Source: Candidatus Saccharimonas aalborgensis
Lineage (GTDB): Bacteria; Patescibacteriota; Saccharimonadia; Saccharimonadales; Saccharimonadaceae
DNA: 32,000 nucleotides
NCBI RefSeq assembly: GCF_000392435.1
Contig: NC_021219.1
Location: forward strand, 540,001-572,000
Direction of reading: 5' to 3'
The notes under the pieces are model-generated. The model did no database searches and was not told where the DNA came from. It saw only the letters and a program-made list of their open reading frames with translations. Positions 1 through 26,400 of the stretch are shown piece after piece. Every line of letters begins with the position of its first letter. The stretch's first letter is position 1. Made by a program: the position numbers and the translations under genes.

Positions 1-2073
1 CTCACTGCGTCCTTCAGAAATTGCACCAGCCAGGACATTGTCTTTGTGACCAATTCCGGTCGCATACTCATTGAGTGACCTGCCGTCAATAGCGCGGACC
101 TGACCGCTAAAGATTGGCTTACCGTCAGCATCGCGGCGAATCACGCCGTGCTCGTCGCGCTGGTGGACTTGGCCATTGCTGAGTAGTTCGTCATTGATTT
201 GGTTCTTGAGTCGGTGTTCGGCCTGAGATTTTCGGATAGCGGTGAGAGAGATTCCCTCGGCTGTCTCAAAGGCAGTGGCTGCGAGTTGCTGCATCGCAGG
301 GGTGGCAATAGGTGCGTGGCCCACGCGCAGCTCATCGTAGGCCGCTTCAATTTGTTCGCCGGCAAGTTTGGCCCGATCGCCCGCCAAGCGGACACTCAGT
401 TCCTTTTCAAGCTCTGATGCGTCTGTTTTTATCTTGACGTGCCAGTTTTCGTCCAAACTATGCTGGATACGCTGTTTATCCCGTTCAGTTTGGCGAGTGG
501 CGGTATCAATGCGTCGACCTTCCATCGAGTCGTTAAAGAGGTTGTCATAGGTAGATTCGTTTACTTTTTTCCATGCTTCACGACGACGACGGTTATAGTT
601 GACGTTACGTGTGGTACGATTTGCCCAGTTGTTACGACCCTTGCCGGCGAGTACGCGGGCTTTTTCTTGCTCGGCCCGCTCCTTTGCCCAGTTGCGAGTA
701 CGATCCATAATGCCAGCTTTTGGATTATTGACCATACCGGCAATGCGCCCAAGGAGTGATCCGCTAAACTTAATGAGCATTGGTGTAATAGCAACCGGTG
801 CTATCTGAACGGCCATACCGAGGATAATGAGGTTAAATGAGTCGGCGTTTTGTATGATGGCCATGCCGGCAAGTTGTGAGCCACCAAATATGACGGCAAA
901 TATCGGGAACATCAGGAGCATTGTAGTGAGTAGCTCGCGCCATTTTGTGAAGTATTTTTCGGTATTTGGGAGGATGTAGGCGACAAATGCTAGCGGTGAG
1001 ACGATGATGAGAACAGTGATGAGTGCCTGTCGAGCTGCCATTACCAGGAGTGCGACGAGAACAGCCATCAATATCCCAACCAGGATCGGTATCAAGAGGT
1101 AGAGGGCGCCAGGGAGTGAACCGCCGAGGACGACAAACTTAGCGTAGAGTCCCAAGGCAGTGACCGCTGTTCCTCCTGAGAGGACAGCACTTGCAACACT
1201 TGACCAGCTGAGTGCAGTGATGTTGCCATAGTTTTCGGTAGTGCTCATGGCGTTGAAAATACCAAGGAACATATCGTGAATCGCATAGCCAAGATAATTT
1301 GAAACGTCTACTGCCAGTGCGCAGATCCAGTATGAGATGTTTACGAGAACGGCGGTGATAATGAGGCGAGGCAACATTTTTTTGATACCGTAGTTGCTGA
1401 TACCGACATTTGATATCTGAGAGTAAATAACAACCAGAAATGCGACGACGAAGAGAGCGTTGGCGATATCTCGTACGATTACCCACATCCTGTAGAGAGA
1501 GTTAGTAGTCGAGGTTTGGACTGGGCGGACGGTGAGAAATGACGACAACGCGTTATAGAGGTGGTCCATGCCGCTTGCTAAGAAATTGACGATCGGACAG
1601 ATAAACCAACCCAGGCCATTAGTGACTGATCCACTACAGGTGCTGGGGGTGGGAGAACTGGTGTTGTTTGTAATGCCGTTGACGATAGCAACGGCGACAG
1701 GTGGTGAAGGATTGCTATACTGGCCAGAATTGAAATCATACACAATGTACTGTGCGCTCGTTGCCTTGGTGGGATCTTGAGCTGTGTCAATGATAATCGC
1801 CTCACGTTTGTTGGTTTGAGGATTTTGGAATTCAAAGACGTGCGTTCCGACCGGTAATTGGCGGCTATCACCAGCTTGAATATCGGCAGTTTGGGTGAAA
1901 CTGCCGTTATTGTAGGTGATGGTGTTTCCGTTACGGACCGCATCGGCGGCGCTAACAGGGGCACTAAGCAAGAGATTGCAGGAAAAAACAGCCACAAGGA
2001 GACTTGTGACAATCAACACTAAATTCCGCAGGTGTATTCTACCGTGCGGGAGGATGGTGCGCAGTTCCCACAT
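1..2073 (-). CDS. VirB6/TrbL-like polytopic T4SS membrane protein (N-terminal 691 codons; 3' end lies beyond window start)
   Basis: Absent from the ORF track because it is open-ended. I read every codon of the minus frame whose top coordinate is divisible by 3, from 2073 down to 1, and found no stop. ATG at 2073-2071. N-terminal signal-like segment (RNLVLIVTSLLVAVFSCNLLLSAPVSAADA), then a ~150-aa Thr/Asn/Pro-rich exposed region. At least 6 hydrophobic helices follow (e.g. MWVIVRDIANALFVVAFLVVIYS, LPRLIITAVLVNISYWICALAV, LIPILVGILMAVLVALLVMAA, ITVLIIVSPLAFVAYIL, TTMLLMFPIFAVIFGG, LIILGMAVQIAPVAITPMLI), then a long charged tail. Divergent from the pilin operon. Family call rests on topology and context only. 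Confidence 0.6.
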   Translation of the reverse strand, partial: MWELRTILPHGRIHLRNLVLIVTSLLVAVFSCNLLLSAPVSAADAVRNGNTITYNNGSFTQTADIQAGDSRQLPVGTHVFEFQNPQTNKREAIIIDTAQDPTKATSAQYIVYDFNSGQYSNPSPPVAVAIVNGITNNTSSPTPSTCSGSVTNGLGWFICPIVNFLASGMDHLYNALSSFLTVRPVQTSTTNSLYRMWVIVRDIANALFVVAFLVVIYSQISNVGISNYGIKKMLPRLIITAVLVNISYWICALAVDVSNYLGYAIHDMFLGIFNAMSTTENYGNITALSWSSVASAVLSGGTAVTALGLYAKFVVLGGSLPGALYLLIPILVGILMAVLVALLVMAARQALITVLIIVSPLAFVAYILPNTEKYFTKWRELLTTMLLMFPIFAVIFGGSQLAGMAIIQNADSFNLIILGMAVQIAPVAITPMLIKFSGSLLGRIAGMVNNPKAGIMDRTRNWAKERAEQEKARVLAGKGRNNWANRTTRNVNYNRRRREAWKKVNESTYDNLFNDSMEGRRIDTATRQTERDKQRIQHSLDENWHVKIKTDASELEKELSVRLAGDRAKLAGEQIEAAYDELRVGHAPIATPAMQQLAATAFETAEGISLTAIRKSQAEHRLKNQINDELLSNGQVHQRDEHGVIRRDADGKPIFSGQVRAIDGRSLNEYATGIGHKDNVLAGAISEGRSE

Positions 2074-2180
2074 AACCGTATTTATACTACCATTTTTAGG
2101 ATAAAAAGTCAATGCTTTTGGGGAGATAGCAGTTTGTTTTTTTGAGAGAGATGTGTACACTGAAATCCAGAGGATAAATT

Positions 2181-2534
2181 ATGCGGCGATATATAGCGTT
2201 TACTGGTTTCGGTCTAGCCCTTATGGCTCTCGTGCTGTTTTCGACTGAAAATGCTTCAGCGGCTGCACAGTGTTCCATTTTGCCTCAGTCTGTCTGTGAC
2301 GGTGGAGTGATGGGCCTGATAAAGTTCGCATTGCAGATTTTGACGGCAGGTGTCGGTATTGTGGCGGTGGGCACGGTTATTTTTGCTGGTATTCTCTACA
2401 CCAGTGCTGGAGATAATGCAAACCAAGTGAGCCAGGCAAAAACGCTGATCACCAACGTCATTATCGGGGTGATTTCTTATGGTCTGATGGCCCTCATTCT
2501 CAACTTCTTAATTCCCGGAGGAGTATTCGGATGA
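2181..2534 (+). CDS. VirB2/TrbC-like T4SS pilin paralog P1 (117 aa, divergent member)
   Basis: AGAGGA RBS about 8 nt upstream. Signal peptide (..STENASA/AA), Cys pair CSILPQSVC, and two TM helices flanking the polar loop YTSAGDNANQVSQAK. Confidence 0.65.
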   Translation: MRRYIAFTGFGLALMALVLFSTENASAAAQCSILPQSVCDGGVMGLIKFALQILTAGVGIVAVGTVIFAGILYTSAGDNANQVSQAKTLITNVIIGVISYGLMALILNFLIPGGVFG

Positions 2535-2953
2535 TACGTTCTATCTATCTCGCGCTGAGCCTTATCGTTGTCTCTATCACAACATCATTTATGATTGCAT
2601 CAACTCCCGTAAGTGCTGCCTGCAGCCCCGATACATTGCTTGGGGTCCCAGCGTGGTACCGAAACCTACAAAATGGTGATTGTAGTATCAAGTTCCCCGG
2701 AAACGCCGACGGTGATATGTCGCGCTTTATCTGGATGATAGTGCTCAATATCCTCCAGGCGGCACTCGTCGTTGTGGCGTATATTGCGATATTCTTCATC
2801 ATAAAGGGCGGCTTCATGTATATTACTAGCGCAGGCTCAACCGATGGTATGGCAAGCGCAAAAAAAACAATCACCAATGCAATCATTGGTTTGATCATCT
2901 GTATTGCTGCCGCGTCAATCGTTAATGCAATCGCGGGGCTCATAAAGGGATAA
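2531..2953 (+). CDS. VirB2/TrbC-like T4SS pilin paralog P2 (140 aa)
   Basis: ATGA start/stop overlap with P1 (2531-2534) and a GGAGGAG RBS. Signal peptide (..TPVSA/AC) and a Cys pair 20 residues apart. TM-loop-TM core FIIKGGFMYITSAGSTDGMASAKKTITNAIIGLII. Confidence 0.65.
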   Translation: MIRSIYLALSLIVVSITTSFMIASTPVSAACSPDTLLGVPAWYRNLQNGDCSIKFPGNADGDMSRFIWMIVLNILQAALVVVAYIAIFFIIKGGFMYITSAGSTDGMASAKKTITNAIIGLIICIAAASIVNAIAGLIKG

Positions 2954-2955
2954 CT

Positions 2956-3240
2956 ATGAATACACTATTTGCAGCGGTCTTTAATTCTACCAGTGAAATT
3001 GGCTTCAAGGGTCCAACCAAGTCGATAGACGTCAAAAACGATATCCTCTACCCTGTCTATTTTTGGGCAGGCATTGTCGCAGTTATCGTCATTATTATTG
3101 CTGGTTTCTTCTACGTCACTTCTCAAGGAGAGGCGCAAAATGTTGTGCGAGCAAAAAATGCTATCCTCAGTGCAATTATTGGCCTTGCTATCATTATGGG
3201 TGCGTTTGTCATCACTAAGTTTGTCGTAGGAGGACTTTAG
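2956..3240 (+). CDS. VirB2/TrbC-like T4SS pilin paralog P3 (94 aa, no signal peptide)
   Basis: Starts 2 nt after the P2 stop. Core IIIAGFFYVTSQGEAQNVVRAKNAILSAIIGLAII matches the family motif. The N-terminus is hydrophilic, with no signal peptide and no Cys. Confidence 0.6.
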   Translation: MNTLFAAVFNSTSEIGFKGPTKSIDVKNDILYPVYFWAGIVAVIVIIIAGFFYVTSQGEAQNVVRAKNAILSAIIGLAIIMGAFVITKFVVGGL

Positions 3241-3243
3241 GAG

Positions 3244-3642
3244 ATGATGAGGACTCTTCGACGTATAGTCACTGGGGTGGCAATGATTGCAGGAATACTC
3301 ATCGTTGTACCGACAGCGGGGGCTCTCGATCTCTCACCCATATGTTCAGACCCAAATATTCCCGCGGAACAAAAGGCTGGCTGTAGTGTAGTGGGTGAAA
3401 ACAAGCTCGGTCAAAACGGTAATGCATCTCTCGTTATGAATGGGATCAGAACTGCTTTGATAGCATTGGGCTCGATCGCTGTCCTTATGATCGTTATCGG
3501 GGGCTTTAAGTATGTCACGTCACAAGGCGATCCGAATCATATCAAGGCAGCAAAAGACACTATTCTCTACTCTGTGATTGGGTTGATCGTGGCGATTCTT
3601 TCGTTTGCAGTTGTTCAGGCAGTAGCAAGTAGGTTTAGTTAA
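3244..3642 (+). CDS. VirB2/TrbC-like T4SS pilin paralog P4 (132 aa)
   Basis: GGAGGA RBS at 3229-3234. Signal peptide (..PTAGA/LD) and a Cys pair (CSDPNIPAEQKAGC). Core VLMIVIGGFKYVTSQGDPNHIKAAKDTILYSVIGLIVAIL. Confidence 0.75.
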   Translation: MMRTLRRIVTGVAMIAGILIVVPTAGALDLSPICSDPNIPAEQKAGCSVVGENKLGQNGNASLVMNGIRTALIALGSIAVLMIVIGGFKYVTSQGDPNHIKAAKDTILYSVIGLIVAILSFAVVQAVASRFS

Positions 3643-3665
3643 TAGTAATAAGGAGTTACAAAAAA

Positions 3666-4043
3666 ATGAAGAAAGTCGTTCAAGCTACCAGCATCATCGC
3701 TCTAGTAGTGGGAATAGGTTTAGTTGTTGGATCGACAACGTTTGCCGCTGACTGTACATCCGCCGCGACGTGTATCGGGACGGGTGCAAACACGGCGGGC
3801 GGTAGTGGACAGAATGGTGATCTTGGTGGACTCATCAAGACAGTTGTTAATACCCTGTTGTATGTACTTGGTGCTGCCGCAGTCCTTATGATTGTCATTG
3901 GTGGTATTCGCTATGTTACCTCGCAGGGCGATCCAGCGCACATTAAATCGGCAAAAGACACCATTCTCTACTCTGTTATTGGGTTGATTGTTGCCATTCT
4001 CGCCTACGCGCTTGTCAATTTTGTCGTGACAAATGTGAAATAG
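3666..4043 (+). CDS. VirB2/TrbC-like T4SS pilin paralog P5 (125 aa)
   Basis: AAGGAG RBS. Signal peptide (..STTFA/AD) and a Cys pair (CTSAATC). Core VLMIVIGGIRYVTSQGDPAHIKSAKDTILYSVIGLIVAIL. Confidence 0.75.
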   Translation: MKKVVQATSIIALVVGIGLVVGSTTFAADCTSAATCIGTGANTAGGSGQNGDLGGLIKTVVNTLLYVLGAAAVLMIVIGGIRYVTSQGDPAHIKSAKDTILYSVIGLIVAILAYALVNFVVTNVK

Positions 4044-4057
4044 TATTTAACACGCTA

Positions 4058-4086
4058 TTAACATTTGCCTGCAAGTTTGTTATATA
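4058..4086 (+). promoter_or_regulatory. Candidate sigma70-type promoter for P6 (TTAACA-N17-TATATA)
   Basis: TTAACA at 4058-4063, 17-nt spacer, TATATA at 4081-4086, about 40 nt upstream of the ATG at 4126. Confidence 0.4.
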
Positions 4087-4125
4087 TAGAAGCAAGAGTA
4101 TATTCCAATAATGAAAGGATATTTC

Positions 4126-4551
4126 ATGAAGTTATCTATCAAACAGCATCTCCTAGGGCTCTTAGCAGTACCCGCCCTTGTGTTGAGTGTGAGCTCGGCT
4201 CCGGTATTCGCAGCCAATAATATCTCACTGAGCCAAGGTGCTGGCTCTGCAAAGGGTGATGACCAAACATCCTGTCTCTTTGGAACAGAGGCGGGCTGTA
4301 GTGGTCAGACCCCGCTCTTCAAAACGATTACCAACGTTCTCCTGTTTATCATTGGTGCTGTATCGGTGATTATGCTGATCATTGGCGGTATTCGTTACAC
4401 TGTCTCTCAGGGTGATAGCACAGCAATCCAAAATGCCAAAAATACGATCTTGTATGCGATCGTCGGTATCGTTGTCGCCATACTTGCCTTTGCCCTTGTC
4501 AACTTTGTCATTAGTAACTTCGCATCGGCCAACAACAGTACGACCCCATAA
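4126..4551 (+). CDS. VirB2/TrbC-like T4SS pilin paralog P6 (141 aa)
   Basis: The ATG at 4126 has an AAAGGA RBS 7-8 nt upstream; the track start at 4111 adds 5 aa and has no RBS. Signal peptide (..SAPVFA/AN) and a Cys pair (CLFGTEAGC). Core VIMLIIGGIRYTVSQGDSTAIQNAKNTILYAIVGIVVAIL. Confidence 0.75.
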   Translation: MKLSIKQHLLGLLAVPALVLSVSSAPVFAANNISLSQGAGSAKGDDQTSCLFGTEAGCSGQTPLFKTITNVLLFIIGAVSVIMLIIGGIRYTVSQGDSTAIQNAKNTILYAIVGIVVAILAFALVNFVISNFASANNSTTP

Positions 4552-4575
4552 TATAAAGGCTATAAATAGTCGCTT

Positions 4576-4616
4576 AATGCAATACGCCACCCCCTACCGG
4601 AGCGGCGTATTGCATT
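4576..4616 (+). terminator. Hairpin downstream of the pilin operon
   Basis: Perfect 13-bp stem, AATGCAATACGCC (4576-4588) with GGCGTATTGCATT (4604-4616), and a 15-nt loop. No T-run follows. Confidence 0.4.
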
Positions 4617-4642
4617 GCAGGCACGTATGCTCTTGGAGGGCT

Positions 4643-4681
4643 AACAAAAAACGACCTATAATATCTCGGTCGTTTTTTGTT
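4643..4681. terminator. Bidirectional rho-independent terminator between the pilin operon and hsp20
   Basis: AACAAAAAACGACC (4643-4656) pairs with GGTCGTTTTTTGTT (4668-4681). A/T runs sit on both sides, between convergent genes. Confidence 0.7.
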
Positions 4682-4691
4682 AGCAAGATGA

Positions 4692-5168
4692 TTACTGAAT
4701 AGTAATTTTCTTCGCCTGCTCTTGTTTCACCTTTGAAAACGTGATGCTCAGAACACCATCTTTAAGTATGGCAGCGACTTCATCCTCCTTTACGGCCACG
4801 GGAAGGGCCAATGTTCGGCTAAATTCGCCCCAATAGCATTCCTGAATGTGCCAGTTGGTTGCGTGACTATCGTCACCGCTACTCAACGTACCACTAATAG
4901 TTAAAATCCCGTCGCTGATACTGACATCCAGATCTTCCTTGTTGACGCCAGCTGTTCTTGCCTTGACGATGAGCTGTTCCTCGGTCTCGTATACATCAAC
5001 TGCTAACTGGCCAGGAAAATCATCCTCGGCTTCTCCCCAGGCAGTATCGTCACCTGAAGATTGAATTGGTGATACAGATGTCTGATCATCTGAAACGCTG
5101 TCGTCATTTAAAAATGCAGCAGCTAGTTCGTCCTCGATCAATAGATCGTCGTTTTGCTTACGTGCCAT
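4692..5168 (-). CDS. Hsp20/alpha-crystallin family small heat-shock protein (158 aa)
   Basis: Alpha-crystallin-like core (LAVDVYETEEQLIVKARTAGVNKEDLDVSISDGILTISG...FSRTLALPVAVKEDEVAAILKDGVLSITFSK). Start set at ATG 5168, preceded by GGAGG (GTGGAGGATATCATG). The track start at 5234 lies inside the promoter. Confidence 0.85.
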   Translation of the reverse strand: MARKQNDDLLIEDELAAAFLNDDSVSDDQTSVSPIQSSGDDTAWGEAEDDFPGQLAVDVYETEEQLIVKARTAGVNKEDLDVSISDGILTISGTLSSGDDSHATNWHIQECYWGEFSRTLALPVAVKEDEVAAILKDGVLSITFSKVKQEQAKKITIQ

Positions 5169-5276: not shown

Positions 5277-5957
5277 ATGCTCGATATCGTTGGAAATGTT
5301 TTAGCACCACACTACTGTTGCTCTTGCGGAGAGATTGGCACTGTTTTTTGTGATTATTGTAAATACGACATCATTTGTGACCCATTTGAGCGATGTATCA
5401 TGTGTCTCGGGCCCGTCGAGGATCGCGGAGCCCACTGCTCACGCTGCGCTGCACCGTATGTGCGTGCCTGGTGTGTTGCTGAACGTGCGGGAGCAGTTAA
5501 GGTCCTTATCGATGCATTCAAGTTTGATGGCTTGAGGGGTGCTGCAAAACCACTCGGTGAGTTTATTTCCAGTGCTCTCCCTGACCTGCCTGACAACCTT
5601 GTGATTGCCAGTGTTCCCACTGTATCTACCCACATTCGTCAACGCGGTTATGATCATGCTGCCCTCATAGCACGAGAAGTGGCACGGCAGCGTGGCGTAA
5701 AATACCAGGCTCTCTTGAAACGGCGAACCACGACAGTTCAGCAAGGGGCACGCAGGAAAGAGCGACTAAAACAAGCGGAGGGGGCGTTTGAGGCTGTTCG
5801 CCGTATTGATGGTGGCACAGTTCTTATCATTGACGACATCTTTACAACTGGCGCAACGCTACACTACGCGGCAACAACACTTTTGGCTGCTGGTGCCAGA
5901 GAGGTATGGGTGGCGGTGGCTGCTCGTCAACCACTCGACGACCCCGTTTCTCTCTGA
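5277..5957 (+). CDS. comFC: ComF family protein (ComFC-type; phosphoribosyltransferase domain with N-terminal Cys-rich zinc-finger region)
   Basis: N-terminal CCSCG..CDYC..CIMC..CSRC cysteine pairs. C-terminal PRTase motif VLIIDDIFTTGATL. Confidence 0.8.
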   Translation: MLDIVGNVLAPHYCCSCGEIGTVFCDYCKYDIICDPFERCIMCLGPVEDRGAHCSRCAAPYVRAWCVAERAGAVKVLIDAFKFDGLRGAAKPLGEFISSALPDLPDNLVIASVPTVSTHIRQRGYDHAALIAREVARQRGVKYQALLKRRTTTVQQGARRKERLKQAEGAFEAVRRIDGGTVLIIDDIFTTGATLHYAATTLLAAGAREVWVAVAARQPLDDPVSL

Positions 5958-5974
5958 TATAGTAAGCATACTAT

Positions 5975-6062
5975 GGAGAGGTGACCGAGTGGTTGATGGT
6001 AACGGTCTTGAAAACCGTCGTGGGGCAACTCACCGCGAGTTCGAATCTCGCCCTCTCCGCCA
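5975..6062 (+). tRNA. tRNA-Ser (anticodon UGA), CCA encoded
   Basis: Acceptor GGAGAGG/CCTCTCC, 3-bp class II D stem, anticodon arm ACGGT-CTTGAAA-ACCGT, long variable arm, T arm GCGAG-TTCGAAT-CTCGC, then G-CCA. Confidence 0.92.
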
Positions 6063-6097
6063 GAGAAAAGACACCCGAACGGGTGTTTTTTCTCTGG
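6060..6097 (+). terminator. Rho-independent terminator that includes the tRNA CCA end
   Basis: 17-bp stem, 6060-6076 (CCAGAGAAAAGACACCC) with 6081-6097 (GGGTGTTTTTTCTCTGG), loop GAAC. The descending arm carries a T-run. Confidence 0.7.
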
Positions 6098-6231
6098 CGG
6101 AATAGGCGCTTAGATTTGAACTCGCGGGCGCGGCGTTAGCCGCGCAAACCGCGATTTCGTGAAGCGACGCGCAGCAAAACTTGCTTGCTTGTTTTGCAAG
6201 CGAGCGGAAATAGGGATCATAAGTGACCGCT

Positions 6232-6283
6232 ATCTCGCCCTCTCCGCCAAGCAAAGTGACCCCAACGGGGTCTTTTTGTTTGG
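6232..6283 (+). repeat. Second copy of the tRNA-Ser(UGA) 3' end (18 nt) plus a terminator-like hairpin
   Basis: ATCTCGCCCTCTCCGCCA at 6232-6249 is identical to 6045-6062. It is followed by a 17-position stem, 6247-6263 with 6267-6283, homologous to the 6060-6097 hairpin but carrying compensatory changes. Confidence 0.8.
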
Positions 6284-6326
6284 CGTGGTGATGCGCGAAG
6301 AATTTCACTCATGCTATACTGTGCAC

Positions 6327-6926
6327 ATGGATAGCGATCAGCGTCAGCAAGTTCAAGAACTGCCTAGCGAGGAAGTGCCAGAAGAGGTGCAGCCCATGTC
6401 CAGTGATGCCCCTGCTGAGGACGCACAACCGCTCTCACAATCCCCTGAGGCAGGTGACGAGGACGAGGAGACGCTTCTGAGATGGGAGTCACCCGAATAT
6501 GTTCAACATGAACGCCCGGTAGTGTGGTATATCATCATGACTGTCGTTGTTGCCGCACTGATGGCGGTTGCTATTTTTTGGATGAACTCAATCTCATTTG
6601 CACTGCTTATACCGGTCATGGTGGTGGCACTTCTTGTGTATGTTAGGCGACCGCCAGCCGTCGTACATTATACGCTAAGCCGTAAGGGGCTTCATGTTGA
6701 TGATCGATTGTTGCCTTACGACACATTCAAATCCTTTGGTGTTATTGTTCAAGGCGGCCATAACAGCATCATATTAACACCTCGGAAGCGATTCCAACTG
6801 GCACAAGTCCTGTATTTTCCTGAGGACGTTGGTGAACCACTCGTTGATATGCTTGCTGCTCGTCTGCCAATGAAGGAAGTAAAACCAGACCTCTACGACA
6901 GAATTACCTCTAAACTTCGTATTTAA
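6327..6926 (+). CDS. Hypothetical membrane protein (acidic disordered N-terminus, 2 TM helices, C-terminal PH-like soluble domain), 199 aa
   Basis: Start set at ATG 6327; the upstream part of the track ORF overlaps the repeat and terminator. TGCTATACT at 6312-6320 sits 6 nt from the ATG. TM helices VVWYIIMTVVVAALMAVAIFW and ISFALLIPVMVVALLVYV. Confidence 0.6.
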   Translation: MDSDQRQQVQELPSEEVPEEVQPMSSDAPAEDAQPLSQSPEAGDEDEETLLRWESPEYVQHERPVVWYIIMTVVVAALMAVAIFWMNSISFALLIPVMVVALLVYVRRPPAVVHYTLSRKGLHVDDRLLPYDTFKSFGVIVQGGHNSIILTPRKRFQLAQVLYFPEDVGEPLVDMLAARLPMKEVKPDLYDRITSKLRI

Positions 6927-6928
6927 AG

Positions 6929-6950
6929 CAGCCCCCTAAGGAGGGGGCTG
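6929..6950. terminator. Bidirectional hairpin between convergent genes
   Basis: CAGCCCCCT (6929-6937), loop AAGG, AGGGGGCTG (6942-6950). Confidence 0.55.
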
Positions 6951-6976
6951 AGATAGGATCTACCCTGTAAGTTCTC

Positions 6977-7360
6977 TTACGAGCCGTAGATGGTAGAGTA
7001 GTTTCCGTTGGTACGATACATGCGTGCTCCAGCGATTTGGGCATACATATCGTATGGCTGTAGGTTATCAACGTTAAAGGACGCGATTGGACCACAAGAG
7101 ATGGCTGCCCGTATACCGGGCCATACCTCATCTGCTCTTCTTAATCGCACTTCAACACAATAGCCGTCGGTCTTTATATCCTGCACCTCGCCATAAACGC
7201 GGTGTCCAGGAATATCAAGTCGGAAGCCTATCCACGCCCTCCCCCAGGTTGTGTACTTCCACTGGTAGTCGACAGCGTGGGCCACATTAAATGGCATGCC
7301 GCTGAGTGAAACCATAACAGCAGCACAGATCGCCACTAGCACTCTTTTTATACTAGTCAT
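6977..7360 (-). CDS. Hypothetical secreted protein (127 aa, signal peptide, 2 Cys)
   Basis: Strong RBS AAGGAGGTGAT directly upstream of ATG 7360. Signal peptide MTSIKRVLVAICAAVMVSLSGMPFNVAHA. No family recognised. Confidence 0.6.
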   Translation of the reverse strand: MTSIKRVLVAICAAVMVSLSGMPFNVAHAVDYQWKYTTWGRAWIGFRLDIPGHRVYGEVQDIKTDGYCVEVRLRRADEVWPGIRAAISCGPIASFNVDNLQPYDMYAQIAGARMYRTNGNYSTIYGS

Positions 7361-7482
7361 ATCACCTCCTTATTATTGTGATATCTCTACTATATGTCGT
7401 TTGTTCTACAACAGCAAGGATACTTTTAAGTATATGATATCTTGTACTGACCTCTTAAATATGCTACTATATGCGAACGTAT

Positions 7483-7559
7483 GCACCCGTAGCTCAGCTG
7501 GATAGAGCGTTGGCTTGCGGAGCCAAAGGTCGCACGTTCGAATCGTACCGGGTGTACCA
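7483..7559 (+). tRNA. tRNA-Arg (anticodon GCG), CCA encoded
   Basis: Acceptor GCACCCG/CGGGTGT (G1-U72 wobble), D arm GCTC-AGCTGGATA-GAGC, perfect anticodon stem TTGGC/GCCAA with loop TTGCGGA, T arm GCACG-TTCGAAT-CGTAC (one C-A mismatch), then A-CCA. Confidence 0.8.
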
Positions 7560-7562
7560 TAG

Positions 7563-7590
7563 AAAAATCCCATGGCTTCATGGGGTTTTT
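7563..7590 (+). terminator. Rho-independent terminator after tRNA-Arg
   Basis: AAAAATCCCATG, loop GCTT, CATGGGGTTTTT. Confidence 0.7.
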
Positions 7591-7655
7591 CTATGGGTGC
7601 TGGCAGATTGCGAGGCGAATTGCAGGCTACTAGCATAAGTGATATCATCAAAGTG

Positions 7656-8381
7656 ATGAAAAATCTATTCTTGGTGCGAATTCGCTTATCTACCTATTTT
7701 ATCTTTATTTTTATCTCGATGACCGTTGTGTCGCTATTTTTACCGAAAGCAAAGTTTGATTCGGCAGCTCTCACCCTATTCTCCGTTAACTCGTTTTTGT
7801 ATGGGTTTTATATCGCGCCAATCCTTAGTGCTCAGAAAACTCGTATTGAGGAAATGCATAAGATAGTTCGCGCCGAAGCCAACGCGGTTTTTGCACTTAT
7901 GATTGCCGTAAAGCGTTTGCCAGATGGAGCGAGAGAACGGCTCGGTGTACTAGTAAGAGAGTATTTATCGTTGTGTATAAGACAACGAAAAGCTGCTGAG
8001 GGTGAGGAAAAATATGAAGAAATCATTAGCTATTGCATAGCCTATGGGGGTGAATCTCCCGAAGCGGTAGCTGATATCCTAGATAAGGTAGTCGCAAATC
8101 AAAAAAACCGTACGGATTTTTCCATGCAGATTGCGAATAAGGTATATTCCAATGAATGGATGGTGATGTTGGTACTATTTGGCGTTACTCTCTCGTTTAT
8201 ATTGCTGCTTGATACGGGCGAAAACGTCATTTTCCGTGTTCTTGCTGCCCTTGTGTCGACCGGACTTACGATGCTAGTTGTTATTCTTGTGAAGATGTCC
8301 ACCCTCACCCACAAAAAGGCGAAGCAGATTTGGGACCCGTACAAACGATTACTTGAGACAAACTTTTATCGTATTGACTAA
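7656..8381 (+). CDS. Hypothetical membrane protein (241 aa; 2 N-terminal and 2 C-terminal TM helices around a helical soluble region)
   Basis: Start set at ATG 7656; the track start at 7572 lies inside the tRNA terminator. TGATATCAT at 7640-7648 sits 7 nt upstream of the ATG. No family recognised with confidence. Confidence 0.6.
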   Translation: MKNLFLVRIRLSTYFIFIFISMTVVSLFLPKAKFDSAALTLFSVNSFLYGFYIAPILSAQKTRIEEMHKIVRAEANAVFALMIAVKRLPDGARERLGVLVREYLSLCIRQRKAAEGEEKYEEIISYCIAYGGESPEAVADILDKVVANQKNRTDFSMQIANKVYSNEWMVMLVLFGVTLSFILLLDTGENVIFRVLAALVSTGLTMLVVILVKMSTLTHKKAKQIWDPYKRLLETNFYRID

Positions 8382-8392
8382 GCACACATCAT

Positions 8393-8423
8393 AAAAAAAT
8401 GACCCAACGTAGGTCATTTTTTT
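8393..8423. terminator. Bidirectional terminator
   Basis: AAAAAAATGACC (8393-8404) pairs with GGTCATTTTTTT (8412-8423), between a plus-strand CDS and a minus-strand tRNA. Confidence 0.7.
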
Positions 8424-8424
8424 A

Positions 8425-8517
8425 TGGCGGAGGAGGGGAGATTCGAACTCCCGCTGCAGGTCTCCCCACACTAACGATTTAGCAAACCGTCCCCTTCAGC
8501 CACTTGGGTACTCCTCC
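8425..8517 (-). tRNA. tRNA-Ser (anticodon GCU), CCA encoded
   Basis: Minus-strand read: GGAGGAG acceptor, anticodon arm ACGGT-TTGCTAA-ATCGT, long variable arm, T arm GGGAG-TTCGAAT-CTCCC, then ..CTCCTCC-G-CCA. Confidence 0.9.
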
Positions 8518-8624
8518 GTATCGACCATGCTACTGTCGTAGACGATCGCTTCAGATTGTTAATTGAACCATAGTAGTATACCATACCAACACCTTAGCGT
8601 ATAGAGACATGCTATAGTTGGCTA

Positions 8625-9983
8625 GTGAGGCTATCTCTCTTTAAACGAGTTTTTGTATGGAACCCAATCGTCACTGGCGGGGTGGTGTTTGTTCTCTATC
8701 TCATTCCCTGCCTATTTGCTCTCGATCCCGACGCGGGATGGCATATACGTTCAGGTGGTGACATCTTGTCGCATGGTATCCCTGCGCACGACCTCTATTC
8801 TTATACGGCGACGGATTTTCCCTGGATACATCACGAATGGCTCGCAGATGTCATTAACTATCTAATATACCAACTTGGTGGTTTCGTGCTGCTTTCTGTC
8901 GTGTATGCGAGCGCATGGACGGCTGCAACACTTGTATTCCTGAGGAATTGGCGATATGGTGCCCTAGCTGTCATAGCTACACTGGCCGTTCTGCCTTACG
9001 TTGGAGTACGCGCAACGACATGGACAGTGGGATTCATGGCGCTTTTATCTTGGTTAATTGATAGCTCTCATCGGTGGCGGATTGCAGCCATCCTCGCCCT
9101 CTTTCTAGTGTGGGCAAATATCCATGGCGGCTTTGTCCTAGGGCTTGTCTATCTGTTATGGATTACTATTTGGCGTCGGTCGGCGTTACTTGGGATTGCA
9201 TTTGTCGGAGCAGTTGCTCTGACGGGTGTTACTCCCTATGGCTATCGGATCTATGAGGAAGTATTTCGCACCCTCCTAGATACTTCCTTGCATCACCGAA
9301 TCGACGAGTGGCGTTCATTTGCATTCGAGCCCTCCATCGTGCCCTACTTGGGCATATGGGCAAGCACTATTGTATTACGGGGGCGAAAGTGGCGGACGAT
9401 TCCGTGGTTTGATGGCCTACTCCTCGTAAGCGCCGTTCTCAGTGTGCGGAATGTCCCGCTCTTTGTACTGATGTCCCTGACTTCTACGCAGCGCTCCTTT
9501 AGCACACTTGCTGCTACCCTGCCAAAGAAGATAACCCTTGTCCATCAATGGTTATTGCCGCTCACGCTTAGTATAGGCGGGATGGTGTTGGGAGCATGTC
9601 TACTGTACGACTATCAATTTCTGGCTCATCCAGAAAAGACCCAGTACCCTGAGGGGGTTGTCGAGAAGCTTCGTCAGCAACCCTGCGAAGGTCGAATCTT
9701 TAATTCTTACAATGTTGGGGGATATCTAATCTGGAAACTACCAGATACAGAGGTGTATATTGATGGCAGGATGCCAAGTTGGGAGCTTGGTGGCCGGAAA
9801 TATATGGACGACTACTATCGTATTCTCCGAGATGACACGTTTCGGCGACAACAGTTTGAGCACTATGGAGTCCGCTGCGTTATTTGGGAGGGATCGGACG
9901 CGTTTGCACGCAAACTTCAATCAGAGGGTTGGCAGACAACTCGCGATGAGAGTACACTAGTGCTATTACGCAGGCCAGCGTAA
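8625..9983 (+). CDS. Large polytopic membrane protein, GT-C-type glycosyltransferase-like (452 aa)
   Basis: At least 10 hydrophobic helices. An early loop carries acidic/His residues (DPDAGWHIRSGGD, FPWIHHEWLAD). C-terminal soluble domain (IFNSYNVGGYLIWKLPDTEVYIDGRMP). GTG start at 8625, 6 nt after TGCTATAGT (8610-8618). The family call is a resemblance only. Confidence 0.45.
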   Translation: MRLSLFKRVFVWNPIVTGGVVFVLYLIPCLFALDPDAGWHIRSGGDILSHGIPAHDLYSYTATDFPWIHHEWLADVINYLIYQLGGFVLLSVVYASAWTAATLVFLRNWRYGALAVIATLAVLPYVGVRATTWTVGFMALLSWLIDSSHRWRIAAILALFLVWANIHGGFVLGLVYLLWITIWRRSALLGIAFVGAVALTGVTPYGYRIYEEVFRTLLDTSLHHRIDEWRSFAFEPSIVPYLGIWASTIVLRGRKWRTIPWFDGLLLVSAVLSVRNVPLFVLMSLTSTQRSFSTLAATLPKKITLVHQWLLPLTLSIGGMVLGACLLYDYQFLAHPEKTQYPEGVVEKLRQQPCEGRIFNSYNVGGYLIWKLPDTEVYIDGRMPSWELGGRKYMDDYYRILRDDTFRRQQFEHYGVRCVIWEGSDAFARKLQSEGWQTTRDESTLVLLRRPA

Positions 9984-9987
9984 TCAC

Positions 9988-10016
9988 TCGACAAAATACA
10001 CTTTTTTTGCTATAAT
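9988..10016 (+). promoter_or_regulatory. Strong candidate promoter of pilin paralog P7 (TCGACA-N17-TGCTATAAT)
   Basis: TCGACA at 9988-9993, 17-nt spacer, extended -10 TGC-TATAAT ending at 10016. GAGGAG RBS before ATG 10043. Confidence 0.55.
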
Positions 10017-10042
10017 ACGACACAAATGAGGAGATCCAACAG

Positions 10043-10465
10043 ATGAAAAGACAATCCCTGACAAACTATGCTGCGGTCTTAAGTGCTACTGTTGTTGTGG
10101 CTGCGCTCAATGTTGCACAGGCGTACGCTGTCGGTTCTGTCACTCAAGGGGTGGACGCGGCACACGGTGACCAGCAGCCATCAAATCTTTTTGGAAATGC
10201 CGGAGTCTTTTCGACAATCAGCAACGTCCTTCTCTTTATTGTCGGTGCGGTTGCCGTCATTATGATTATCATCGGCGGCTTGCGCTATGTCGTATCTGGA
10301 GGCGATGCTTCCCAGGTACAAGCGGCAAAAAATACGATTCTTTATGCGCTTATCGGTGTCATTGTGGCTATTCTCGCCTATGCGGCGGTCAATTTCGTCG
10401 TGGCGAGTTTCGTTCCAAATGCCGCAACGAACGGACAGAGCGTTACCGGTACTTCTGCCCGATAA
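10043..10465 (+). CDS. VirB2/TrbC-like T4SS pilin paralog P7 (140 aa, dispersed copy)
   Basis: Signal peptide (..NVAQAYA/VG) and no Cys pair. Core VIMIIIGGLRYVVSGGDASQVQAAKNTILYALIGVIVAILAYAAVNFV, closely matching P4-P6. Confidence 0.75.
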   Translation: MKRQSLTNYAAVLSATVVVAALNVAQAYAVGSVTQGVDAAHGDQQPSNLFGNAGVFSTISNVLLFIVGAVAVIMIIIGGLRYVVSGGDASQVQAAKNTILYALIGVIVAILAYAAVNFVVASFVPNAATNGQSVTGTSAR

Positions 10466-10517: not shown

Positions 10518-10607
10518 TGGCGGAGAGGGGGGGATTCGAACCCCCGATACGTTTGCGCGCATACACGATTTCGAGTCGTGCGCCTTCAACCACTCGGCCA
10601 CCTCTCC
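10518..10607 (-). tRNA. tRNA-Ser (anticodon CGA), CCA encoded
   Basis: Minus-strand read: GGAGAGG acceptor, anticodon arm CACGA-CTCGAAA-TCGTG, long variable arm, T arm GGGGG-TTCGAAT-CCCCC, then CCTCTCC-G-CCA. Confidence 0.9.
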
Positions 10608-24676: not shown

Positions 24677-24768
24677 GGAGAGGTGACCGAGTGGTTGAAG
24701 GTGCACGCCTGGAAAGTGTGTGTGCGGGGCAACCCGCACCGTGAGTTCGAATCTCATCCTCTCCGCCA
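24677..24768 (+). tRNA. tRNA-Ser (anticodon GGA), CCA encoded
   Basis: Acceptor GGAGAGG/CCTCTCC, anticodon arm CACGC-CTGGAAA-GTGTG, long variable arm (GCGGGGCAACCCGCACC), T arm GTGAG-TTCGAAT-CTCAT, then G-CCA. Confidence 0.9.
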
Positions 24769-24888
24769 AGACTATAGCGATGGACTAAGCAGCAGTCGTT
24801 ATAAAATAAATGATCTTAAGATATGACAGTGCCCCGTTCCCTCTCGCGAGGAAACGGGGCTACCATCATCAGCGTGTTGCGCCGGTCG

Positions 24889-25539
24889 TCAGTAGACGAC
24901 GACGCGCGTACCGATCGGCGACGAGTCGAACACCCGCTTGGCGCCTGTCATGTCGCGCAGGTTCACGCAGCCGTGGCTGCCTCCAGACGGACTGCTCCAA
25001 CCCCACTCGGCGAACTCGTCGCTGAAGTGGATGGCGTAGCCGCCGATGAAGAACAATGAGAAGGGCATGCGCGCGCCATATTTGTAACTGTAAGCCGCGG
25101 GGTTTCGGTAGTAGACCCGGAAGACACCCCGCGGGGTGTTCATGCCGGGGCGACCGAAGCGCGCGTCGAGCGTGCCGGTGACTTGACCGTTCACGACGAC
25201 GAACAGCTTGTTGGCACCGGTGCTCGCGCAGAGCGCGATGCCCTTGATCTGGCAACGCGGGTCGATGCCGCTGATCGCGGGGTAGGCCGGCGCGGCCGGC
25301 TTGACGACCTTCTTCTTCGTCTTCTTCTTGGCTTTCTTTTTCGCCTTCTTGACCTTCTTCTTGGCGGTCGTCTTGGTCGCCACCACGCTGTGGTAGGCGG
25401 TGGTGACACCGGACGAGACCGGCGCGGCTGTGGCCGAGCTGGCGCCGACGAAGCCACCGAGCAAGCTGACGACGAGCGAGAGGATGGCGATGAAGGCGAG
25501 ACGGATACCGAACTTGTTTTTGCTGATGATGGGGTGCAT
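24889..25539 (-). CDS. L,D-transpeptidase (YkuD) domain protein with signal peptide and Lys-rich linker (216 aa)
   Basis: Catalytic motif ..YAIHFSDEFAEWGWSSPSGGSHGCVNLRD. N-terminal signal/anchor IRLAFIAILSLVVSLLGGFVGASSATA. Linker TAKKKVKKAKKKAKKKTKKKVVKP. ATG at 25539 is preceded by AAGGAGG (8-nt spacer); the track begins at GTG 25548. Terminator-like hairpin at 24831-24860. Confidence 0.8.
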   Translation of the reverse strand: MHPIISKNKFGIRLAFIAILSLVVSLLGGFVGASSATAAPVSSGVTTAYHSVVATKTTAKKKVKKAKKKAKKKTKKKVVKPAAPAYPAISGIDPRCQIKGIALCASTGANKLFVVVNGQVTGTLDARFGRPGMNTPRGVFRVYYRNPAAYSYKYGARMPFSLFFIGGYAIHFSDEFAEWGWSSPSGGSHGCVNLRDMTGAKRVFDSSPIGTRVVVY

Positions 25540-25639
25540 CCCCACCACCTCCTTTTCTTTGGAGTCGGGGACTGACTGTGCTACTTTAACATGTTATAGA
25601 TAGTTTGTCTATATAAGAAGCCGAACTCTATAAAAAGCG

Positions 25640-25669
25640 AATGGCCCACCCCGTGAGGGATGGGCCATT
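25640..25669 (-). terminator. Rho-independent terminator of the 199-aa island gene
   Basis: AATGGCCCA (25640-25648) pairs with TGGGCCATT (25661-25669). On the minus strand it is followed by CGCTTTTTA. Confidence 0.65.
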
Positions 25670-25683
25670 GCCTGGATGGGGTA

Positions 25684-26283
25684 CTAGCGGCGCGTGAGGG
25701 TTGCGCCCTCGGGCAGTGCTTCGAACTGGGCGTATTCGGGTCGCGGCGTGTTGTCGCCACCAGCCCAGTACTGCCCCTCGCCACGCTTGGCGATCTGGGC
25801 CGAGCAGTGACGTGCAATGCCGTCCGTGAGCTTGTCGAGGAATTCGACCATGACCTTGCGGTCGTTGGCCTGACTCAGCCCGCTGCCGGCACCGGGGAAG
25901 CCGCGGTGAACCACGGCGTGCCCGAAGCGGAACTGCCCGCTGCCGAGTCGCCAGGGCTCCTCGGCGAAGACGGTCTCCATGGACACGCCGGGGTTCAACT
26001 GCATCCAGTCCAGTTTGGCCGCGGCGTTGACCAGGCGACGACGCGGTCCATCACCGAGGTGGAACTCCAGTAACACGTCGTCGAGGTAGGGCCGGCCGTG
26101 CTCGCGTACGGGGCTACAGACCAGGCCGCTGTAGGTGGCGCCAGGTTGTTCCTCGCCCTGCTCGATGAGCCAGGCGAGGTACCAGTGCACGTTGAACATG
26201 GCTCGCCTGACGGCCTGATCAAACACGTCGATGTCGCAATCGAAGGGAAGGGCGTCGACGTGCAGACGGAAGCTGTCGGTCAT
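25684..26283 (-). CDS. Hypothetical cytoplasmic protein (199 aa), high-GC, no family recognised
   Basis: Start set at ATG 26283 (MTDSFRLHVDALPF) with a GAGGAAA RBS; the track start at 26325 adds 14 aa. No signal peptide or TM segment. GC3-rich codon usage like the neighbouring ldt gene. Confidence 0.6.
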   Translation of the reverse strand: MTDSFRLHVDALPFDCDIDVFDQAVRRAMFNVHWYLAWLIEQGEEQPGATYSGLVCSPVREHGRPYLDDVLLEFHLGDGPRRRLVNAAAKLDWMQLNPGVSMETVFAEEPWRLGSGQFRFGHAVVHRGFPGAGSGLSQANDRKVMVEFLDKLTDGIARHCSAQIAKRGEGQYWAGGDNTPRPEYAQFEALPEGATLTRR

Positions 26284-26400
26284 GATTTCCTCACAGGATC
26301 GAGCTCTGAACCCCCATGGTTCCAAGCAATATGCTAATTATAGCATAAAAACTATAAAACAACAATACCCTAAGGAGTACAAAGCAAAACAGCCCGCTCG

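Follow-up and report, generated by a model that had tools for sequence, protein, structure and literature searches.

Why does a single locus of Candidatus Saccharimonas aalborgensis hold six tandem pilin-like genes, with a seventh close by? The textbook picture is that conjugative-type pili are homopolymers, and to our knowledge the type IV secretion systems (T4SSs) of monoderm bacteria were long held to have no pili at all. We analysed a window of 32,000 nucleotides (nt; contig NC_021219.1, positions 540,001 to 572,000; coordinates below are those of the window), in which six consecutive same-strand open reading frames (ORFs), designated P1 to P6, occupy positions 2181-4551 and a seventh, P7, lies at 10043-10465. 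The region is probably the pilin operon of a chromosomal monoderm-type (MPF-FATA-like) T4SS and, as part of the same judgement, the best explanation of the array is that its products would build a heteromeric pilus-like conduit serving the epibiotic interaction. The six-gene array as such has already been published; the one described here is the Ca. Saccharimonas aalborgensis copy and no new kind of system.

The genes and other elements of the array are listed below with strand and basis (PF18895, Pfam family T4SS_pilin; TrbC, Pfam family TrbC/VirB2, PF04956; HMM, hidden Markov model; aa, amino acids).

1..2073, minus strand: N-terminal 691 codons of a VirB6-like polytopic membrane protein (translation; full length 944-962 aa in source genomes)
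2074..2180, no strand: divergent intergenic region between the VirB6-like gene and P1 (sequence), presumed to hold both promoters
2181..2534, plus strand: P1, 117 aa, the most divergent paralog, with signal peptide and Cys31/Cys39 (PF18895 21.7 bits; family HMM E 1.6e-30)
2531..2953, plus strand: P2, 140 aa, with signal peptide, a C-x19-C loop with an LGVPxWYRxL motif, then the hairpin (PF18895 E 1.6e-9)
2956..3240, plus strand: P3, 94 aa, hairpin alone, without signal peptide and without Cys (PF18895 E 2.4e-7; TrbC E 1e-3)
3244..3642, plus strand: P4, 132 aa, with signal peptide, Cys34/Cys47 and hairpin (PF18895 E 2e-10)
3666..4043, plus strand: P5, 125 aa, nearest to the family consensus, Cys30/Cys36 (PF18895 E 3.7e-13; TrbC E 6e-5)
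4077..4104, plus strand: promoter-like site TTGTTA-16-TATATT in the P5-P6 spacer (consensus scan, 9/12)
4126..4551, plus strand: P6, 141 aa (146 aa with a start at 4111), the most conserved paralog and final gene of the operon (PF18895 E 1.6e-10)
4640..4684, no strand: likely bidirectional terminator separating P6 from the convergent hsp20 gene, a perfect 17-nt inverted repeat with A/T runs (repeat search)
10043..10465, plus strand: P7, 140 aa, the lone paralog, without Cys, nearest to P6 at 49% identity (PF18895 E 4e-9)

When the family HMM was run against the 412 stop-to-stop segments of the window, exactly these seven ORFs were matched, with E-values from 1e-30 to 4e-46. Given that the model selects just these, a seven-member family arising by chance can be excluded, and the six consecutive ORFs plus one that an earlier note on this DNA had described are confirmed as the sole family members in the window. 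Identity among the paralogs is 17-49% overall. Scores against PF18895 were 38.1 bits for P2, 31.2 for P3, 41.0 for P4, 49.8 for P5, 41.3 for P6 and 36.8 for P7 (E 3.7e-13 to 2.4e-7), so that six of the seven lie above the gathering score of 26.6 bits. P1 (E 2.2e-4) falls under this cut-off and owes its membership to the family HMM; its counterpart in Southlakia epibionticum, SEML1_0014, matches PF18895. All seven proteins also match the NCBIfam model NF045849 ('Mbov_0395 family pilin-like conjugal transfer protein') at sub-threshold scores of 18-40 bits, and many database homologs bear PF18895 and PF04956 together.

A relative in Bacillota was found by tblastn (E 7e-4) at L093:8743-9198, on the Pontibacillus megaplasmid NZ_CP062975.1, where it is annotated as 'Mbov_0395 family pilin-like conjugal transfer protein'; a CD1110-family VirB4-like ATPase and a peptidoglycan hydrolase are encoded in the same cluster. 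This relative in a T4SS cluster hints that the pilin family came with the monoderm T4SS and is part of its heritage, in contrast to a borrowing from diderm systems, which is left open in a recent survey (Quinonero-Coronel et al. 2025, Microb Genom, PMC12102498).

The architecture that the earlier note had read from the array, a signal peptide followed by an exposed segment and a two-helix hairpin, was recovered by hydropathy. In all seven proteins the C-terminal part is a pair of long hydrophobic helices with a short polar loop, (Y)(V/T)(T/S)SxGD, between them, and the shared core motif proposed for them is real in the alignment. An N-terminal basic end, hydrophobic segment and AxA-type site were present in six of the seven proteins (five of the six in the array), P3 being the one without. 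AlphaFold2, run with a pilin family alignment of 72 sequences, modelled P5 with helices at residues 53-85 and 90-123 at predicted local distance difference test (pLDDT) values above 90. Cys pairs occur in five paralogs, as had been claimed (C31/C39 in P1, C31/C51 in P2, C34/C47 in P4, C30/C36 in P5 and C55/C63 in P6), and are absent from P3 and P7. Two details required correction: the spacing in P2 is C-x19-C and not C-x20-C, and the pair of P6, said to follow the signal cleavage site directly, is located about 20 residues beyond the predicted site.

Each pilin gene is preceded by a Shine-Dalgarno-like motif. P1 and P2 overlap by the ATGA at 2531-2534 and the P2-P3 and P3-P4 gaps are 2 and 3 nt, which is what had first been described. 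For P6, the NCBI gene calls pick the 141-aa version. The promoter suggested for P6 amounts to a 9/12 consensus match in its spacer, and promoter-like sites are no commoner in this stretch than in shuffled sequence (6 found versus 5.0 +/- 2.2); RNA structure was not detected in the P5-P6 spacer (z = 0.75). The consensus scan gave one promoter-like site on the minus strand inside the divergent intergenic region, at 2112-2084. An Rfam scan of the window returned tRNAs only.

The genes to the left of the window are those of a T4SS. They were read over about 10 kb from loci L001-L005 (the exact P1 protein is present in CP065015, CP065017 and several metagenome contigs). First comes the remainder of the VirB6-like protein (944-962 aa in full), then proteins of about 300 aa and of 1059 aa, followed by PrgI, a TraC-like protein and a VirB4-type ATPase, all within 10 kb. 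The search for T4SS ATPases on this side, which the earlier note had proposed, was thus successful: the VirB4-type protein has P-loop_TraG/DUF87 matches, and the VirB3-like PrgI was confirmed at E 7.5e-10. No coupling protein or relaxase was found within the roughly 10 kb seen to the left. Both are absent from most Patescibacteria according to the literature (Wang et al. 2023, Cell, PMC10633639; Quinonero-Coronel et al. 2025, PMC12102498), and the Saccharibacterial T4SS has been described as being without a recognisable relaxase and coupling protein (Wang et al. 2023, PMC10633639). Published accounts diverge on this component, a FEMS review naming a VirD4-like one and Wang et al. (2023) no recognisable coupling protein. 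The right-hand 20 kb of the window holds no T4SS ATPases, only housekeeping genes.

The divergent gene at 1-2073 had been called VirB6/TrbL-like, and this stands on precomputed annotation, PF19590 (TrbL_3) being assigned to the full-length gene in L001-L005 and to about 85% of 120 listed homologs. It was not reproduced in a local Pfam scan, which matched neither the fragment nor the full-length protein nor any of 18 homologs; NCBIfam gave no match, and a profile search of solved-structure sequences with the VirB6-like alignment was likewise without a match. The 1059-aa protein (L003:2749-5928) is a second VirB6-like polytopic protein with a weak TrbL match (E 0.009), and its counterpart in L096 bears TrbL_3. 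The two VirB6-like paralogs per locus correspond to SEML1_0011 and SEML1_0013 of S. epibionticum.

By synteny, the array is the ortholog of the six-pilin array SEML1_0014-0019 of S. epibionticum ML1 (Wang et al. 2023, PMC10633639), an assignment that also draws on Nanosynbacter and other loci and on Table S1 of that study. In S. epibionticum, the minus-strand gene SEML1_0013, annotated as TrbL/VirB6-like by structure, precedes SEML1_0014-0019 on the plus strand (399, 558, 312, 381, 384 and 417 bp), and then follow Hsp20, a ComFC-like gene, a tRNA-Ser, a 1392-bp ORF and the lone pilin SEML1_0024 (Wang et al. 2023, PMC10633639). The window is syntenic with SEML1_0013-0024 gene for gene (VirB6-like, six pilins, Hsp20, ComF-like phosphoribosyltransferase, tRNA-Ser, a large unannotated ORF and the lone pilin), and the sizes agree. 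The two arrays share the class Saccharimonadia, gene order, sizes, the short third gene and PF18895; they differ in genus and in habitat (the oral cavity for S. epibionticum, activated sludge for the present organism), and essentiality is known from S. epibionticum only. Transposon sequencing (Tn-seq) scored all six genes SEML1_0014-0019 as GD/ES/ES and the lone pilin SEML1_0024 as NE, and the P6 ortholog SEML1_0019 had 0 insertions (Wang et al. 2023, PMC10633639).

Pilin arrays are found across Patescibacteria (FEMS review 2025), and the survey of this group counted 441 of them in 383 assemblies, each made up of 2-11 pilin genes, with a mean within-array identity of 25% and a maximum of 54% (Quinonero-Coronel et al. 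2025, PMC12102498). Those arrays resemble the present one in being tandem PF18895/PF04956 genes, enriched in Saccharimonadia, and its identity of 17-49% compares with theirs. Positional orthology, a fixed six-gene order, Cys pairs and pilin-pilin fusions are unmentioned in the passages of the survey that were searched. Published labels for such genes conflict, 'pilins' being used by Wang et al. (2023) and in the survey and 'putative effectors' or 'effector gene cluster' in TM7x-based studies.

One genome per species was scanned with the VirB6-like alignment, which gave 80 loci, and 37 of these, at the species level, hold the same VirB6-like/six-pilin layout with a complete tandem array of exactly six pilin genes; the 37 were used for orthology, spacing and Cys counts. 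The best match in another species was found at the same array position in 100, 100, 79, 48, 59 and 94% of comparisons for positions 1 to 6, respectively (17% expected by chance), and for P1 the best match was position 1 in all 1332 comparisons. Given this positional orthology, the paralogs are therefore ancient and separately maintained. The size pattern of the six genes is the same in the 37 loci, with P3 93-107 aa long and lacking a signal segment in every one; the overlaps or few-nt gaps between positions 1 to 4 are kept, the P5-P6 spacer is conserved (median 69 nt), and 24/37 loci also have a lone pilin at a distance of 1.3-5.4 kb.

Conservation is unevenly distributed within the proteins. 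Between species, the exposed N-terminal segments are 25-43% identical versus 50-71% for the hairpins, and P6 has a median identity of 57%, with 71% in its hairpin. The Cys columns are conserved in P1 (C31, 97%), P2 (C31 and C51, 100% each) and P4 (C34, 97%; C47, 100%), and the whole-protein Cys count is mostly exactly 2 at positions 1, 2 and 4, and 0 or 2 at position 6. Cys30/Cys36 of P5 and the pair of P6 are not conserved across species. The disulfide-stapled exposed module proposed in the earlier note gains support from the conserved columns of P1, P2 and P4.

The array genes are also maintained between strains. In comparison with L007, a Ca. S. aalborgensis metagenome-assembled genome with 88-94% nucleotide identity across the array genes, the ratio of nonsynonymous to synonymous differences (pN/pS) was 0.06-0.17, there were no frameshifts, and many of the few replacements fell in the signal peptide. 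The paralogs are intact in six strain-level contigs. Paralog decay was rejected on the basis of these intact copies and of pN/pS values of at most 0.17, to which the six-gene array in 37 species adds. At positions 1-5168 of the window, synonymous divergence from L007 is 0.16-0.38 for P1-P6 together with the VirB6-like gene and 0.13 for hsp20; at 5277-10465 it is only 0.02-0.03, for the ComF-like gene, the 452-aa ORF and P7. From this pattern the T4SS/pilin block looks like a divergent allele introduced by recombination, though one under purifying selection.

The interpretation of the array as T4SS pilins is supported by these results. The earlier note had named three observations beforehand that would speak against it, namely no profile similarity to pilins, no T4SS genes nearby, and paralogs that are unexpressed or decaying, and none of the three was obtained.

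A further line of evidence comes from natural fusions. About 40 protein clusters of 216-251 aa (P0126-P0224) join P2 to P3 in one chain, in which some 25 linker residues connect the P2 C...LGxPPWYRGL...C loop and hairpin to the hairpin of P3; a structure model of such a fusion has four long helices. They occur in the same synteny, next to the VirB6-like gene (L025:8766-9470, L094:8001-8714 and L096:8001-8729). These fusions explain how P3 could manage without a signal peptide, and they place its N-terminus outside the cell. An exhaustive profile search gave 63,871 family clusters at E up to 0.001, and 69 of the 150 best family representatives carry 2-11 hairpins behind one signal peptide. Such polyproteins (P0241, P0243, P0244, P0245, P0248 and P0285) have a single signal peptide and Cys pair followed by tandem hairpins with short linkers, for example 552 aa with 6 hairpins or 1147 aa with 11, and they are also found inside single-hairpin pilin arrays of other uncultured lineages (L098:10001-11095 and L099:1777-3435). 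In the literature searched, no account of multi-hairpin pilin polyproteins was found.

In the model that we infer for assembly, disulfides, subunit roles and pilus, each gene would encode a VirB2-like subunit with a Sec signal peptide (except in P3), a brief exposed stretch at the N-terminus and a two-helix membrane hairpin whose short loop is charged. One translationally coupled operon would supply all six subunits at the same time, each inserted so that its N- and C-terminus lie on the outer side, and a disulfide would staple the exposed segment of P1, P2 and P4. With the VirB6-like platform and the VirB4 ATPase as assembly machinery, the subunits would then be packed next to one another in a single heteromeric, pilus-like conduit that spans the envelope; in it P2 and P3 would form a fixed pair and P1-P3 would be specialised minor subunits. 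P6 is the likeliest bulk subunit given that it is the most conserved, is encoded by the last gene, has its own spacer and has an ortholog with zero insertions. The conduit would serve the epibiotic interaction with the actinobacterial host. A stricter version, in which the six paralogs are obligate, non-interchangeable subunits of one heteromer of defined architecture and other lineages build the same from polyproteins of up to 11 hairpins, is plausible, though we would put it somewhat short of even.

The paralogs might alternatively be interchangeable major pilins, used singly or in varying mixtures to match hosts or vary the surface. This has been proposed for the VirB2 paralogs of Bartonella and Anaplasma, and the authors of the survey themselves suggest it for Patescibacteria (Quinonero-Coronel et al. 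2025). It would agree with the low identity among the paralogs (17-49%), with exposed segments that vary more than the hairpins, with the close relationship and blurred orthology of positions 4-6 and P7, and with the elevated synonymous divergence of the block relative to its flanks (0.16-0.38 versus 0.02-0.03), which suggests allele exchange. Positions 1, 2, 3 and 6 are, however, ancient separate orthologous groups in a fixed order in 37 species, and translational coupling implies that the genes are expressed together. No invertible segments or switch-like inverted or direct repeats were found in 1900-4800, where the only repeats are those derived from the paralogs and the putative terminator hairpin. 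The low pN/pS, with many replacements in the signal peptide, also speaks against interchangeable use, the P2-P3 and multi-hairpin fusions force subunits to be present together, and all six genes are insertion-depleted in S. epibionticum (Wang et al. 2023, PMC10633639). We therefore consider interchangeable pilins quite unlikely and prefer a heteromer, because of the fixed six-gene order, the positional orthology, the Cys pairs, the purifying selection and the fusions; where the earlier note had offered a heteropolymeric or a switchable structure, the former is the better fit to the evidence and the latter less so. Our reading differs here from the proposal of host-range versatility in the survey, since the evidence leans to co-assembly.

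ATP synthase c subunits form hairpin rings, and fused multi-hairpin versions of them occur. By analogy, the products could form a membrane-embedded hetero-oligomeric pore or stator-like ring with the VirB6-like proteins and no extruded pilus, which we regard as unlikely. With up to 11 hairpins (22 transmembrane helices), the polyproteins would be hard to pull out of a membrane and fit such a ring, as does the fact that no pilus has been seen in Patescibacteria; c subunits (4v1f, 1a91, 1l6t) appear in the Foldseek list at non-significant E-values, and SEML1_0018 was placed in the ECOD group 'F1F0 ATP synthase subunit C' (Wang et al. 2023, PMC10633639). These hairpin fold matches are generic, however, and the sequence family is that of T4SS pilins. 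In labelling tests on PrgF, the nearest monoderm analogue studied by experiment, the protein behaves like a pilus subunit that lines the lumen, and the conserved, putatively disulfide-stapled exposed segments suggest a role outside the membrane. That the genes encode secreted effectors, small Sec-exported proteins delivered to the host, is highly improbable, although signal peptides are present in six of the seven proteins, the TM7x locus has been labelled a 'Sec secreted array' or 'putative effector genes' and a 2025 activated-sludge study speaks of an 'effector gene cluster', and some TM7x cluster genes shift expression between infection phases. About 70 of some 125 residues are taken up by two hydrophobic transmembrane helices, the proteins match the Pfam T4SS_pilin family, P3 has no signal peptide, and it is the hairpin and not the exposed part that is conserved.

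Several observations weigh against a heteromeric T4SS pilus. Similarity to TrbC/VirB2, which the earlier note had expected, exists at sub-threshold level, the best scores being 23.6 bits for P5 (E 6e-5) and 19.7 bits for P3 against a PF04956 gathering score of 27.9 bits. Comparison of the 72-sequence alignment with six annotated VirB2/TrbC plasmid proteins by hhalign gave a probability of 4.6% over 33 columns, with the first helices in equivalent register, and homology to diderm VirB2 could not be demonstrated in this way. A profile search of PDB sequences with the pilin alignment gave no match, and a Foldseek search of the PDB with the P5 model returned generic helical hairpins (best E 1.9) with no conjugative pilins in the top 50, a search that is uninformative because the fold is so simple. 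Positions 4 and 5 are weakly resolved as orthologous groups (48% and 59%). L094 has four array genes (five hairpins) with a lone pilin and a single VirB6-like gene, so that six separate genes are not obligatory. The fusions show which hairpins are adjacent, but a membrane-embedded ring would account for this no less than an extruded filament, and no pilus has been observed in any Patescibacterium (literature including PNAS 2024). The Tn-seq essentiality of genes 1-5 could be polar on P6, and for this reason only the requirement for the last gene is unambiguous.

The array can be set beside several known systems. Diderm VirB2/TrbC pilins (Agrobacterium VirB2, R388 TrwL and F TraA) are likewise small proteins with a signal peptide, two hydrophobic helices and a short charged loop, encoded in T4SS clusters with VirB3, VirB4 and VirB6 homologs. 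They differ in that there is usually a single major pilin per system, and sequence similarity to the array is marginal; the array, in turn, belongs to a monoderm cell, has N-terminal Cys pairs, and no VirB5-like tip protein was identified with it. PrgF and the Mbov_0395 family proteins of monoderm conjugative elements are likewise two-helix hairpins in monoderm MPF-FATA-type T4SSs. PrgF of the Enterococcus plasmid pCF10, which is VirB2-like, is modelled as polymerising on a VirB6 pentamer, is essential for conjugation and was the subject of the labelling tests mentioned above (preprint 10.64898/2025.12.18.695078). Such systems have one gene, at most two, and serve conjugation with a relaxase and coupling protein, whereas the Saccharibacterial system has six plus one. 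In function alone, the array may also be compared with the sets of minor pilins in type IV pili and in the pseudopili of type II secretion. In these, several diverged, co-transcribed and separately conserved subunits, several of them with disulfides, are believed to make up a defined complex for priming or at the tip, alongside a bulk subunit. Fold and machinery are unrelated there (a single N-terminal helix, a prepilin peptidase, PilB/PilC), and no homology is claimed.

Some other features of the window were recorded. Four tRNA-Ser genes (tga, gct, cga, gga) and a tRNA-Arg gene (gcg) are located at 5975-6062, 7483-7559, 8425-8517, 10518-10607 and 24677-24768, and the interval from the pilin array to just past P7 contains three of the four tRNA-Ser genes. 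Just upstream of P7 is a hydrophobic ORF of 452 aa (8625-9983) with long apolar stretches and no Pfam match; in S. epibionticum a similar-sized, non-essential ORF, SEML1_0023, lies upstream of the lone pilin (Wang et al. 2023, PMC10633639). A 127-aa protein on the minus strand (6977-7360) has an N-terminal signal-like segment and no family match. The tRNA-Ser at 24677-24768 adjoins a GC-rich island (24869-26325) with two minus-strand genes, a YkuD L,D-transpeptidase (24889-25548; GC content 0.63, 0.88 at third codon positions, GC3) and an unannotated ORF of 213 aa (25684-26325; GC 0.65), the other measured genes of the window having 0.48-0.52. Among homologs of the transpeptidase, those with a named source are all from Actinobacteria (Intrasporangiaceae, Aestuariimicrobium; 36-45% identity). 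Together these features suggest that the island was acquired from a high-GC donor, possibly of the host phylum.

The function of the Saccharibacterial T4SS has been called 'completely unknown' (PNAS 2024), and yet the one Patescibacterium that is open to genetics cannot live as an epibiont without it. What is added here, six-gene positional orthology in 37 species, Cys pairs, purifying selection, and fusions and polyproteins, is incremental. The fixed order and positional orthology argue against subunit redundancy, the conserved Cys pairs are precise targets for mutagenesis, and the P2-P3 and multi-hairpin fusions predict which subunits touch, so that the choice between one heteromer and alternative pilins becomes directly testable through the comparative results. 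If the stricter version given above is right, no earlier conjugative-type pilus would have been heteropolymeric or made of concatenated pilin domains, and confirmation of a heteromeric VirB2-type structure would change the textbook view of these pili as homopolymers.

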